From NCBI RefSeq assembly GCF_024521635.1, contig NW_026250432.1:186001-250000 (forward strand): DNA of 64,000 nucleotides. Direction: 5' to 3'. Of the stretch, positions 57,553 to 62,892 are shown in pieces (within the stretch, counting starts at the first letter, position 1; each line of letters begins with the position of its first letter). Origin of the DNA: Tricharina praecox (taxonomy: Eukaryota). Under the pieces are notes generated by a model. It was not told where the DNA came from. It saw nothing but the letters and a program-made list of their open reading frames with translations, and made no database searches. The position numbers were made by a program, and so were the translations under genes.

Positions 57553-60315
57553 CGCTTCGTGTTAGTTTCCGTTGCTCTTCGTAGTGGGTTAGGGGGGTTC
57601 GGCGCAAAGGCAGCACAGCAAGAACAGATCGCGGTTTTTTTGAGGGGAGAGAGAGGGGGGTGTGTTTTTTGTGAGGAGAGGGAAAAGAAGGTGTAGAGTG
57701 TAGACGATAGTGATTCGTTCACATACCGGTGACGGAGGGAAGGAGGAGAACGACGCAGATGCAGCTGCTTCTTCCTTCAAAATCACAGGGGCTGCTGCTG
57801 TGGCCAGGGGGAGCTGGTTGCATGGAAACGGTGTGCAGTTGCAGTTGTAGATGATCATCAAATCATTCGAGCAAAGGCCTTTCGTTTCGTTTGGCCGTGA
57901 CTGAAGAGGTTGTTTGATCCTGCCAGTCCTCTCTTCTCTTCTCTTCTTCTTCCCCTTGGCTCGTGTAGTTCGGCTGGTGAACGGTTCGATCTGTTTGTTC
58001 CAAGTGTGATGGAAGGGCGAGAGGCGAGCGTAAGGACGAATGTGAAGCAAGTTGACGAAGTTGAATGAGTCGTGTGAGAGTGAACGTGAAAAAAGTCTTT
58101 CTTCCCTTGGACTCGGGGATAACCACTAGGAGAAAGGGATCAGAGAAGAGTCGAAAGAGCAGCAGAGCAGCAGAGCAAACCCACAGACCTCTCCAGAAGT
58201 ATCAAGACTCACTCGATGGGGCGGCTCAGGGGAAAACGCAAAGAACTTGGCCCGTTTGGGAACCGCGTTCGCCCTCCAGCCCGCACATGCACACACGAAC
58301 GAACGAAACGAACGAAACCCATCCAAGAGAGCAGTTATGTAGAAGAATTATGTAGATACCGGCTGGATGCTTCTCGTCTCCTTTCTTCTCTCGCCCGTGG
58401 TACGGCAGACCTCGAAGATATACACTTTTTTTGTTTTATGAAACGCGTTCACACGCACCTCGCTCAAAACCTTGCAAGGCGAGGCGAGGCGAGGCGAGAA
58501 GCCTTTATCTCTTGGGCTGACGGGCCGGGGAGCCTGGCTGGTGTGGAGATGGGGCTCAAGTACGTCCTTAGTTATCACAAGATCCTCATGGAAGGAGATC
58601 GCCACATATGCATACGTTTAACCTCGCTCCAGCCAGCTAAGACCAATGAATGTTCCTGGCTTTCTGGCCTGTCAGAAGTGATGCTCAGAGCCTGTCAATT
58701 GTCAAGTGAGGGGAATCCGAACGATCCCGTTGGCAGGTGCGGGCTGCCGGCCGGTGTCACTCATGGCTTGACAGGCGAAAGGGAGTCATTTCTCAAAGTG
58801 ACAGATGCGTGGTTATATTGGGACACGTAGGTAGCGTACCCAGAAACTGTCGAGTGATAAAGACCTGGTTCTGATGTTGTGATGTGCTCTAAGACTGACG
58901 CCTCCGGACTGCCACTATGTAGGAAAATAGGACAACCAGCAAATAGGAGTTCTTCACCAGCGATCACGCCGATTCCTAATATCCACCTAAGCATTTGCTT
59001 ATGACAGTGTTCCTGTCGCCACGGGAAAAGCACTGACCCCGACGGAATCGGAGCTTCCAGCAAGGCCGATAGGCTGTGCCGCCTAACTCCGCTTCCTGCA
59101 TGCATATGCGGGAGTACCTCGATATCGCCAGCCCTGGAGAAAACAGGTGGGTGCTCGATTACCGCGCGCACGCTTATCGACTGCTGCATCCCCTCCGGGT
59201 TCGGTGGACATCTGCCGTTTGCTTGCTTACTTCGTGTGTAGATATTTCCGCCGCAGCCGTAGAGCTCGTACACATGTAGAGTAACTGTGCCCATCGGCCC
59301 CACAAATCGCTACGGACAGGAGTGCGTGCAAGACACGTCGTTACCTACATCTTACTCTGCACCGTTCGGAAGATGGGGTTGCAGTCTGGGCCCTGCCAGA
59401 GGTCGGAATCCGGATGCTGGTGACTCGTGAGGACCCTTCGCCGTGCTTGACGGCAAACGGACTGCTGAGGATGCTGTTGGCAGTTGCCTCCTCCCCCTCG
59501 CTTCCCGGAGATCGGAGGAGGTCGAAAAAGGTGGACGAGATTTAACTCCGCATCCGGGCCCGATCACGTAACCATGCAGCACAAATGCTTAACTGCTGCC
59601 TGTAAGCGGCGACAGAATCCAGATATCCGACAACTTTAAAAAAAAGTCAAAAAAAGTAATCCTTTGTCCCATCTTTCAAATGCTCATGTGGGAGGGGCGG
59701 GTTTCAGATAAATCAACATGTAAAAAGATACGTTCACGAAGAATCCTTAGATAAGCAGGAATGCACCAGCAGTTTTCGATGGTGTGTAATTCTTGCAAAG
59801 CGGAGCTATACCGCATTGGGCAGTCACCGGCGCAGCAGGGGTGATTTACAAGAATTGACAAATTGGCGGGGCAGGCTGCGGGTCGGATTAGGCGGTGTAA
59901 GCAGCTTGTAATCATCCGCAAGCAAAATGATGCTTCTCTGCAGCACCAGCCAGGCCAAATGGTGGCTGCTTGTCAACCTCTAATCTTCGCTCCGTGTGGG
60001 CAAGTTCCTTGAGAATAATCTGCTAGTGGACCCCGTTCACCGCTTCGCATTCCAGTTCGGGGATAGCTGTACCTTAATGGGGTGAAGACAGCGTTCAATC
60101 GCGACTCCCCTCGGATATCCGCTGGACCCCAAGACGCTGAGTGGGCGGGGTGTAGCAGGAGGATGTGCAGCAGTGGGAGGAGGAGGAATGATATAAAACC
60201 TACCCTTCTCCCAGACAATCATCCCATTCTCATTCCCAGCACACAGCATCTCATCCTCTTTCCTCCACACACAACCTCATCCACTCTCCCCAAGTCAACC
60301 CCACAAACCTCAACA

Positions 60316-61053
60316 ATGGCCAAGATCGCTATCGTCATCTACTCCATGTACGGCCACGTTGCCACTCTCGCCGAGGCCGAGAAGAAGGGTATCGAGGCTG
60401 CCGGTGGACAGGTCGACCTCTACCAGTATGTTGCACATTACTCACGATCTACAGATGTTGTGGTGAAAGATCAATCGCTGACAGTGTTTCTCCAGGGTTC
60501 CCGAGACTCTCCCCCAGGAGGTCCTGACCAAGATGCACGCCGCTCCCAAGCGTGACTACACCATCGCTACCGCTGATGCCCTCCGCAACTACGACGGTAT
60601 CATCTTCGGTATCCCCACCCGTTACGGAAACTTCCCCGGCCAGTTCAAGTCCTTCATCGACACCACTGGTTCCCTGTGGCAGGAGGGTGCTCTCTCCGGC
60701 AAGTACGTTGCTCTGTTCATCTCCACTGGAACCATGGGTGGAGGTCAGGAGTCGACTGCGATCGCCGCCATGAGCACCTTCGCCCACCACGGTCTCATCT
60801 ACGTTCCCCTCGGATACAAGCACGCTTTCCCCATCCTTGCCGATCTCTCTGAGGTCCGCGGTGGTTCCCCTTGGGGTGCTGGTACCTTCGCTGTATGTTA
60901 TCCCGCATTCTTCGCACTCAATCGGAATGATATACTGACATGTAAAAGGGCGCCGACGGTTCCCGCTCTCCCTCCGCCAAGGAGCTCGAGCTCGCTGAGA
61001 TCCAGGGTAAGATGTTCTACGAGACCGTCGCCAAGGCCTACGGATCAGCGTGA
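60316..61053 (+). CDS. PST2: Flavodoxin-like NAD(P)H:quinone oxidoreductase (WrbA/Pst2/Ycp4 family), 203 aa to the first stop; exons 60316-60425, 60496-60892, 60949-61053
   Basis: [55 protein letters not shown]-like tataaa at about 60192. Confidence 0.93.
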
Positions 61054-61548
61054 CTCCATGGTAGTGACAACACTCCTGCCGCTGTTGAGGGCACCTCGGC
61101 ACCAGCAAGGAACGGAGCTTCGGCAGTACGGAAGAAGGAGAGGAAGGAGAAGGAGGCGGGACCCTGCGGACTTCCAGGGAACTGTGTCGTTACGTAGGTA
61201 GTTGGCTGAGCGCGGGAGTTCTGGGATTTACCTTCGTTTTTTCCTTTTCGCTAGTTTTCGGTTCAGCGTCTGCGTAATAGTTCAAATATGGGACATTCCG
61301 TTGCCTAATAATAAATAAACAAAATTTTTGTCTCCCAACTTCCGTGATCGTTTTGTGTCTGTGTCAGGTTTTCACGAGCGGGATGGAGCCCCTGCTCGCA
61401 GAGCAGAGGCTAATCAAGCGGCTAGCCGGTGGTCGCACTTCGGCAACAGCCGATCGCTCTCCCCACCCCTCTTCCGCCCGCTCCAAGTGACCTGAACTTC
61501 CCAACTCTCCCCCGCATCCTCCGTCTCCAATCTATACAACACCAAACC

Positions 61549-62892
61549 ATGTCGGAAAAGCCATTACAGAATGATCGTCTCCTGCGTGCTGCAAAAGGTC
61601 GGAACCGCTGCTCGATTGACCCATTGCCTTACTGACGTTGCCATTCAAGGCCTACCGGTCGACCGCCCGCCAATGTGGGTGATGCGTCAAGGTGCACTTC
61701 CTCAACTCCTCCGAGCTGTCATCCGACATATGGCACAATTACTCACTAACATGTTAACCCACGAAAGCCGGTAGATACCTTCCTGGTACGTCTATCCTTC
61801 CCCCTCACTCCTCCTCCTCCTCCGCATTCCCATCTAACGTTACTGGCACACAATAGAGTACAATGCCACCAAGGGCACACGCGACTTCTTCGAGATCTGT
61901 CGGTCGCCCGAGATCGCGAGCACGATCACGCTGCAGCCGATCGAGCGGTTCCAGCCACTCATCGACGCGGCGATCATCTTCAGCGACATTCTCGTCGTGC
62001 CGCAAGCGCTGGGGATGACGGTAGAGATGGTTGAGAAGCGGGGGCCGGTATTTCCCGAGCCTTTGCGGCACCCGAGTGATTGCGAGAAGCTCCGGAAGGA
62101 GGTGGATGTGACGAAGGAGCTGGGCTACGTCTTTGAGGCGATTAAGGAGACCAGACGGAAGCTCGACGGAAGGGTCCCGCTGTTCGGCTTCGTCGGCGCC
62201 CCCTGGACCCTCATGGCTTACATGATCGAGGGGGGTGGCAGCAAGATGTTCACAGAGATCAAGCGCTGGATCTTTGCCTGGCCCGAGGAGTCCAAGGCGC
62301 TGCTGCAGCAGATCACAGATGTCGTGATTGAATTCCTCGCGCGGCAGGTTGAGGCCGGCGCACAGGTACCTCCCGCCCCGCTCACAGCCCCACTCCGCGC
62401 TGACACACCACTTAGATCGTACAAGTCTTCGACTCCTGGGCAGGCGAGCTGGCACCGCACGACTTCGCGGTCTTCTCGCTGCCCTACCTGCGGCAGATAT
62501 CGTCGCGGCTGCCCGCGCGGCTCGCCGAGCTCGGCCTCGACCGCGTGCCCATGACCGTCTTTGCCAAGGGCGCGTGGTACGCGCTCGATGACCTGTGCGA
62601 CTCCGGCTACGACTGTGTTGGCCTCGACTGGACGCATGATCCTGCCGAGGCGTGCAGAATCGCCCGCGGCAGAGTCACCCTCCAAGGGAATCTCGATCCG
62701 AATACTCTGTATGGTGGACGCGAGGCGATTACGAAGGGCGTGGAGAGGATGGTTGGAGGGTTTAAGGAAGCCAAGGGAAGGTATATTGTTAACCTCGGAC
62801 ATGGAATCACCCCTGGGGTCAACCCGGACGATCTTAAGTGGTTCTTTGAGGAGGTCGTTAGAGTCGGCACTGAGGTTTATAAGGAGTTTTAA
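61549..62892 (+). CDS. HEM12: Uroporphyrinogen decarboxylase, multi-exon, including an 18-nt micro-exon at 61768-61785
   Basis: [65 protein letters not shown]. Confidence 0.96.

Follow-up and report, generated by a model that had tools for sequence, protein, structure and literature searches.

A conserved UGA-CU(A) stop codon most likely leads to a CaaX-bearing isoform of a flavodoxin-like quinone reductase in Tricharina praecox and other Pezizomycotina

Introduction

The gene described here brings together two systems that are otherwise known separately, namely, programmed readthrough of a UGA stop codon and the lipidated C-terminal tail of the yeast protein Ycp4. In Ustilago maydis, UGA followed by CU is reported to be enough for efficient readthrough, and UAG or UAA in place of UGA lowers the efficiency (PMC4207609). 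According to the same source, readthrough is stimulated further by an A three nucleotides past the stop (position +6), which is not required, and the G that follows is noted as important; UGA CUA G is elsewhere named a high-readthrough motif (PMC12233894). The Ycp4 protein of Candida albicans is described as having a C-terminal extension, roughly 90 amino acids (aa) long, with a CAAX box at its end (PMC4556627), and that of Saccharomyces cerevisiae is tabulated, together with Ras proteins, as a substrate of the palmitoyltransferase Erf2 (PMC5364179). Our subject is a Pst2/WrbA-type gene of the fungus Tricharina praecox, located in a stretch of 64,000 nucleotides (nt) from assembly GCF_024521635.1 (contig NW_026250432.1, positions 186,001 to 250,000 of the forward strand), which we refer to as the window and from whose first letter all coordinates are counted.

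An earlier note on this DNA, made from its letters alone, had proposed that this one gene makes both a 203-aa protein and a CaaX-terminated protein of about 251 aa by way of a leaky TGA-C stop. The analysis presented here supports that proposal with a conserved TGA-CT(A), selection that is specific to the frame behind the stop, an invariant tail motif, and RNA-derived contigs that retain the stop. What the locus encodes is most likely a conserved, readthrough-dependent CaaX isoform of a flavodoxin-like quinone reductase, previously unreported and masked by inconsistent annotation.

Results

The gene and the frame behind its stop codon

The plus strand from 60316 to 61293 is occupied by a three-exon gene. 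Exon 1 (60316 to 60425) begins with the ATG at 60316 and is separated by a 70-nt GT..AG intron (60426 to 60495) from exon 2 (60496 to 60892), which encodes the core of the FMN_red/flavodoxin fold. A second GT..AG intron of 56 nt (60893 to 60948) precedes the coding part of exon 3 (60949 to 61050), whose 34 codons end in the residues AKAYGSA and close the 203-aa form. These boundaries are set by spliced contigs of two sequencing runs, X1 (depth 200.6) and X2 (depth 189.1), which contain the joints 60425^60496 and 60892^60949 and show 0 differences from the window. Both runs are recorded only as "RNA?"; we take their contigs to derive from RNA because the joints are intron-free. The exon structure that they define is the one that had been deduced earlier from the sequence.

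When the mRNA assembled from these exons is translated, it reads 203 aa, a stop, 47 aa, and a second stop. The first stop is the TGA at 61051 to 61053, which is the proposed leaky stop or programmed readthrough site, and it is followed by CTC CAT GG TAG (61054 to 61064). The 47 codons of the putative readthrough extension (61054 to 61194) begin LHGSDNTP, run through a variable linker and a patch rich in K, R, and E, and close with the conserved motif GPCGLPGNCVVT (61159 to 61194), so that the extension terminates in KKERKEKEAGPCGLPGNCVVT. This motif contains an upstream Cys codon (61165 to 61167) and a terminal CaaX box, CVVT (61183 to 61194), directly before the TAG at 61195 to 61197 that would close the form of about 251 aa. 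The rest of the 3' untranslated region within reach of the RNA contigs extends from 61198 to 61293, where X1 ends; X2 ends at 61288. Thus, the earlier note had the coordinates, the frame, the TGA-CTC context, both product sizes, and the in-frame continuation to a terminal CaaX right, as judged from the sequence and its translation.

The model protein matches FMN_red in Pfam with an E value of 6e-16 (58.8 bits, with a cutoff of 24) and also matches Flavodoxin_2 and Flavodoxin_1; its residues 1 to 198 match the structures of yeast Pst2 (5mp4_A; E value of 4.5e-82) and WrbA (2r96_A; E value of 3.9e-53). From these matches, the gene product is predicted to be a WrbA/Pst2-type flavodoxin-like NAD(P)H:quinone oxidoreductase. 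There was no Pfam match in the 47-aa extension.

Conservation of the layout in related loci

Relatives were obtained by scanning metagenome contigs with a 203-aa close relative, which gave 30 loci that were read in frame past the main open reading frame (ORF). Their taxonomic spread is estimated from likeness to named proteins: they are 61 to 86% identical to models of Penicillium, Phyllosticta, Teratosphaeria, Colletotrichum, Pyrenophora, Acephala, Wilcoxina, and others. In 16 of the 30 loci, the main ORF ends in TGA and is followed directly by an open frame of 45 to 99 codons, which ends in GPCGLP-x-x-C-x-x-x and a stop; L014 has the same layout and is open up to the end of its contig. The first stop is TGA in 17/17 sequences (the window and the 16 loci). 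The second stops, counted in 18 sequences including L022 (see below), are a mixture of 7 TAA, 6 TAG, and 5 TGA.

The remaining loci include several that lack the tail. No such extension is found in the six loci that have TAA or TAG as the stop of the main ORF, nor in L027, which has TGA-ATC; L024 runs off its contig, and the C-terminal query gave no match in L029 and L030. In two loci, L013 (2249 to 2640) and L017 (1451 to 1840), the stop context is TGA-GTG, the frame meets a TAG after 21 codons, and what is left of the tail is a relic, GPCGLPSNRSVA, in which the CaaX Cys is missing. This pair, a paralogue or a lineage of its own, has a decayed tail and provides a natural negative control.

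The frame behind the stop is open to an extent that is specific to that frame and to that interval. Within the extensions, frame 0 is open in 16/16 cases, with 0 stops over 972 codons, and frames +1 and +2 contain 17 and 52 stops; an equal length of frame 0 past the second stop is open in 0/16, with 52 stops over 965 codons. When the window is compared with L026, the relative closest to it, the extension has 20 synonymous differences over 35.8 sites and 9 nonsynonymous differences over 105.2 sites, corresponding to a ratio of nonsynonymous to synonymous divergence (dN/dS) of 0.09 (Fisher P value of 2e-8), and a reading of these columns in frames 1 and 2 gives ratios of 1.72 and 1.59. Ratios from protein-guided alignments of the extension are 0.11 for the window and L026, 0.14 for L010 and L011, and 0.29 for L016 and L020. 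The only indel that separates the window from L026 within the extension is 9 nt long, and a 2-nt indel occurs right after the TAG. In the coding part of exon 3, the same two sequences differ by 10 synonymous and 0 nonsynonymous changes.

At the protein level, conservation is concentrated at the very end of the extension. In an alignment of 16 sequences (A2), the residues G, P, C, G, L, and P and the CaaX Cys are invariant, and the linker is barely alignable; the Cys of GPCGLP is thus a second invariant Cys, located six residues before the CaaX Cys. The last residue of the CaaX box is L or M in most relatives, T in the window, and A in L026. The earlier note had made its proposal depend on conservation of the extension among orthologues, and the 16 related loci show the conserved TGA-CT, the conserved frame, and the terminal CaaX alike. 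On the strength of the low dN/dS, the uninterrupted frame, and the invariant motif, we regard it as nearly certain that the extension is protein coding.

The tail is also found widely among proteins in public collections. When 1.84 billion cluster representatives were searched exhaustively with a profile, 67 matched with an E value of ≤0.001; the tail motif is present in 45 of these, and 43 have the CaaX arrangement at their end. Six fragments that include the end of the main domain have a W at the stop position, followed by L; these look like the output of gene calling with a code in which TGA means Trp, and two proteins of this type are named (Variospora aurantia and Coniosporium uncinatum). 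A word-index search with the alignment returned 36 proteins of at least 224 aa, with GPCGLP present in 35/36 and the CaaX arrangement at the end of 32/36. Named NCBI models with a tail make up 33 of the 36 and represent 16 Pezizomycotina genera: Penicillium, Aspergillus, Teratosphaeria, Phyllosticta, Pyrenophora, Colletotrichum, Fusarium, Neocosmospora, Diplogelasinospora, Rhypophila, Rhynchosporium, Acephala, Watsoniomyces, Cirrosporium, Variospora-like, and Tricharina. A word-index protein search with the tail of L004 only yielded 2 candidates and no match, because the tail is too variable for this method.

One further fragment, P0023 (from a 33.6-kb contig), reads KKVNF-R-IEGPTDEG, with an Arg where others have the stop, and its tail continues past GPCGLPSKC with no terminal CaaX. 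Either its lineage may encode an amino acid where the others stop, or an intron may have gone unrecognized.

Stop codon context

The nucleotides behind the TGA are conserved as well. Among 16 distinct sequences, C is found at +4 in 15/16, T at +5 in 15/16, A at +6 in 11/16, and G at +7 in 7/16, followed by A at +8 in 13/16, T at +9 in 14/16, and G at +10 in 14/16; the consensus is therefore TGA CTA SAT GG, with CTA SAT GG standing where the window has CTC CAT GG. CTA is common after the stop despite the composition of third codon positions in the main ORF of the window, which are 54% C and 3% A. The core of the readthrough context, a UGA stop with C at +4 and U at +5, is present in the window.

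Transcripts and alternative routes to the tail

Searching proteins with exon 3 and the extension as the query retrieved a 246-aa NCBI/UniRef model (P0002; "putative NADH-quinone oxidoreductase [Tricharina praecox]") that is identical to the window gene except for five codons missing at the stop. When 15 nt (61050 to 61064), which begin with GT and end with AG, are deleted from the spliced mRNA, the result is P0002 letter for letter. This raises the best-surviving alternative to readthrough, namely, that a minor mRNA drops the stop by removal of this or another intron, which puts exon 3 in frame with the CaaX tail. Many NCBI models of other genera likewise arrive at the tail with no amino acid in place of the stop, and one related locus, L022, offers a convincing example of the route. 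Its tail lies in another frame, the frame between its stop and its tail is closed, and a canonical 98-nt intron (GTGCGT...TTTTGTAG; 622 to 719) contains the TGA and joins VNFG to the tail frame. In the lineage of L022, splicing or intron retention appears to take the place of readthrough as the way to the same tail.

For the window itself, the transcripts point the other way. The X1 contig is unbroken from 60949 to 61293 and the X2 contig from 60949 to 61288, both retaining the TGA and passing the TAG. A contig of X4, a soil metatranscriptome, spans the stop unspliced from 60981 to 61136, and coverage in X3 is confined to 60526 to 60825, away from the stop. No joint at 61050 to 61064, or elsewhere at or near the stop, was present in the contigs of X1, X2, or X4. 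The same is true of the joint for 61007 to 61064, which the earlier note had named as the only obvious alternative intron and had already set aside as entering a different frame. Rare isoforms could escape assembled contigs. The 15 nt are far shorter than the real introns of the gene (70 and 56 nt) and below known fungal intron sizes. The pseudo-donor GTGACT occurs in 9/16 distinct sequences, and the base before the TGA is A or C in the other 7. When frame-preserving GT..AG pairs of 40 to 400 nt were listed for all 17 sequences, no donor was common to all of them; the stop-overlapping GTGACT was the top candidate in 7/17, and a branch site motif accompanied only 2 of the listed top candidates. 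Furthermore, splicing would not need TGA in 17/17, a CT(A) context, or a frame that is open from the stop onward. We thus consider splicing out of the stop an improbable source of the tail in the window.

Because there is no RNA joint and 15 nt is so far below the real introns, we judge the "intron" at 61050 to 61064 to be an annotation artifact, that is, a modeling device for reaching coding-like sequence behind the stop. Other models fit this picture. Those of Wilcoxina, Geopyxis, and Pyronema (201, 200, and 200 aa) have no tail, although the stop of the Wilcoxina-like locus L019 reads TGA-CTAG and its extension of 45 codons ends in a CaaX box, and the last residue of the Wilcoxina model is at the position where L019 has its TGA. 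In the named NCBI models that do have a tail (P0083 to P0114), there is no residue at the stop position and the junctions vary even within one genus, which suggests ad hoc, stop-skipping model introns. By analogy, the tail-bearing models of Penicillium, Aspergillus, Fusarium, and Colletotrichum probably use stop-skipping introns like the 15-nt one.

A second alternative, also raised in the earlier note, is A-to-I editing of the mRNA that turns UGA into UGG at some stage, for instance, during sexual development. Stop-loss editing that extends C termini is documented in Fusarium graminearum and Neurospora (PMC13123824), and the developmental stage that matters may lie outside the sampled runs. 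However, fungal stop-loss editing as described there is biased to UAG, whereas the stop here is TGA in 17/17 and never TAG, and the conserved downstream CT(A) is a motif of ribosomal readthrough. No hairpin was found around the stop (z score of +0.70; 0 consensus pairs). The contigs of X1, X2, and X4 show only A at 61053, which is weak evidence since contigs can hide minor variants. Editing is thus disfavored, and we rate it as less probable still than splicing.

That the extension is not expressed at all, being either a fortuitously open 3' untranslated region or, through a recent nonsense mutation or a sequencing error, part of an ancestrally continuous Ycp4-like ORF, is scarcely credible: the window by itself is only suggestive, because 10.7% of 20,000 shuffles of 61054 to 61293 remain open for at least 47 codons, and codon bias in the extension is weak, but the TGA is present in the contigs of two runs, in the closest relatives L026 and L019 (where a sense codon had been the concern), and in 14 further loci, and the frame-specific purifying selection, the 972 codons without a stop, and the invariant terminal motif lift the extension far above chance. 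CaaX-like endings occur in 7 of the 1,007 stop-to-stop segments of at least 40 aa in the six frames of the window. Insertion of selenocysteine at the UGA was rejected because fungi lack the machinery for it (PMC4207609).

Neighboring features and further contig observations

The spliced contigs of X1 and X2 (record lengths of 1,214 and 1,189) continue for 246 and 226 nt upstream of 60200, reaching beyond a TATA-like box at about 60193 to 60199. This upstream part is either a long 5' leader or the result of merging with an upstream transcript. Among the X4 records, record 4 contains a joint that goes back 179 nt in exon 1 and the 5' leader, and record 5, with 10 differences in 74 nt, is a conserved part from another organism.

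On the 3' side, a 20-nt A/T-rich block, CTAATAATAAATAAACAAAA (61305 to 61324), is identical in the window and L026, and the rest of the 3' flank is identical at 82 of 131 aligned positions. The block begins 12 to 17 nt past the ends of the RNA contigs (61293 and 61288) and may be an element related to polyadenylation. Further downstream, a gene for uroporphyrinogen decarboxylase lies on the plus strand at 61550 to 62700, with its ATG at about 61550 and short introns near its 5' end; the ORF piece from 61838 to 62554 matches the Pfam family URO-D with an E value of 1.2e-63.

Discussion

Taken as a whole, the evidence argues for programmed ribosomal readthrough of UGA-CU(A), which would give a minor 251-aa, CaaX-bearing, Ycp4-like isoform beside the 203-aa soluble form across Pezizomycotina; we hold this to be the probable explanation. 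In this scheme, most ribosomes would stop at the UGA (61051 to 61053) and release the soluble form. Owing to the weak-termination context UGA-CU, some would decode the UGA by a near-cognate tRNA (Trp, Arg, or Cys is expected) and add the 47 codons. The resulting isoform of about 251 aa would end in a flexible linker followed by GPCGLPxxC-a-a-X, a CaaX prenylation box, and this tail could anchor the enzyme to membranes, as has been proposed for the separately encoded Ycp4 paralogues of yeasts. The invariant upstream Cys is a candidate palmitoylation site, since S. cerevisiae Ycp4 is listed as an Erf2 substrate.

Several observations weigh against readthrough, or at least against its efficiency in the window. 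We infer translation past the TGA, and with it readthrough as the decoding event, lipidation, and membrane targeting, from sequence conservation. The window has CTC after the stop (C at +6 and C at +7) and not the CTA of L026 and 11 of the 16 distinct sequences, so that readthrough may be weaker here, and L001 has TGA-TCG. No stimulatory RNA structure was found after the stop: the 90-nt fold of the window has a z score of +0.70, with 154 of 200 shuffles folding as well or better, and an RNAalifold consensus fold of 15 sequences has 0 pairs; the short context alone would therefore have to suffice. The CaaX box of the window, CVVT, ends in T, which is not a classic X residue for farnesylation or geranylgeranylation, as opposed to the L and M that are geranylgeranyl- and farnesyl-type residues. 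C is found at 23% of third positions in the extension, versus 54% in the main ORF; such weak codon bias fits rare translation but equally fits weak constraint. Finally, L022 uses a real intron, which makes splicing a possible route in this family, and our comparison used assembled contigs, which drop rare variants and could hide a minor spliced or edited mRNA.

A wider reading, which we offer as speculation and think unlikely to hold in full, is that Pezizomycotina have, since their common ancestor, solved the Pst2/Ycp4 split with a single gene, in which a UGA-CUA switch sets the ratio of the soluble to the lipid-anchored form and could be tuned by oxygen. Given that the enzyme forms oligomers, lipidation of a small share of its subunits could be enough to hold entire complexes at the plasma membrane. 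Termination where a stop codon has C as its next nucleotide has been reported to respond to oxygen-dependent hydroxylation of the ribosome (PMC4207609), and the switch could thereby adjust the antioxidant capacity of the membrane to oxygen or oxidative stress without a change in transcription. If this is true, the gene would provide the first conserved example of a lipid anchor that is encoded by readthrough.

Readthrough to the CaaX tail, as favored here, would also mean that programmed readthrough in fungi can expose a cryptic signal of a new class, namely, a lipid anchor, the documented fungal cases so far being peroxisomal targeting signals of type 1 (PTS1). It suggests that filamentous fungi bring an antioxidant enzyme family to the membrane by translational recoding, where yeasts do so by gene duplication. 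Among the members that have been given names are the allergens Alt a 7 and Cla h 7, and the flavodoxin-like proteins of C. albicans are reported to promote virulence (PMC4556627). The locus further exposes a systematic annotation problem, in that some gene models end with the TGA and others bypass it through small, invented introns that do not agree with one another. In the open-access literature, outside of which most subscription journals lie, we found no report that links readthrough to Ycp4, Pst2, WrbA, flavodoxin-like proteins, or Alt a 7, and the text of PMC4207609, supplements aside, makes no mention of quinone, flavodoxin, prenyl, farnesyl, or CaaX.

Among known systems, stop-loss editing in F. 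graminearum (DBF2 and others; PMC13123824) also yields a conserved extension behind a conserved stop and two forms per gene. In the cases described there, however, the stop is a UAG inside a hairpin and the tails are destabilizing signals, whereas here we find TGA-CT(A), no hairpin, and a conserved lipidation motif. Closer are the PTS1 isoforms made by readthrough in U. maydis and other fungi and in human MDH1 and LDHB (PMC4207609 and PMC12233894), with which the present gene shares UGA-CU(A)(G) and an in-frame extension that carries a C-terminal targeting signal; these sources also describe a minor extended isoform and dual localization, of which the counterpart here is predicted. The differences from the PTS1 systems are that the signal here is a CaaX box with an upstream Cys, the family is that of the flavodoxin-like quinone reductases, the extension is long (45 to 99 aa) and mostly variable instead of short, and readthrough is deduced from sequence. 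Freitag et al. reportedly found in 2012 that lineages gain the same extension by either readthrough or splicing, to which L022 may be compared.

The closest precedent for a lipid anchor is a readthrough extension in Drosophila for which a prenylation signal is likewise predicted (Dunn et al. 2013, PMC3840789; also PMC4973966); in the part of PMC3840789 consulted, it stands as a single animal prediction in a table, without conservation analysis or function. With respect to the enzyme itself, yeast Pst2 (5mp4) and bacterial WrbA are similar over residues 1 to 198 but have neither the extension nor a CaaX box. Like Ycp4, by published descriptions and not by a comparison of tail sequences, the gene product is predicted to have a C-terminal extension that ends in CaaX after a flavodoxin-like domain, which is reached here only if the TGA is decoded. 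In yeasts, Ycp4 is encoded by the ordinary ORF of a separate paralogue and Pst2-type proteins lack the tail, whereas here the tail lies behind the conserved in-frame stop of one gene.

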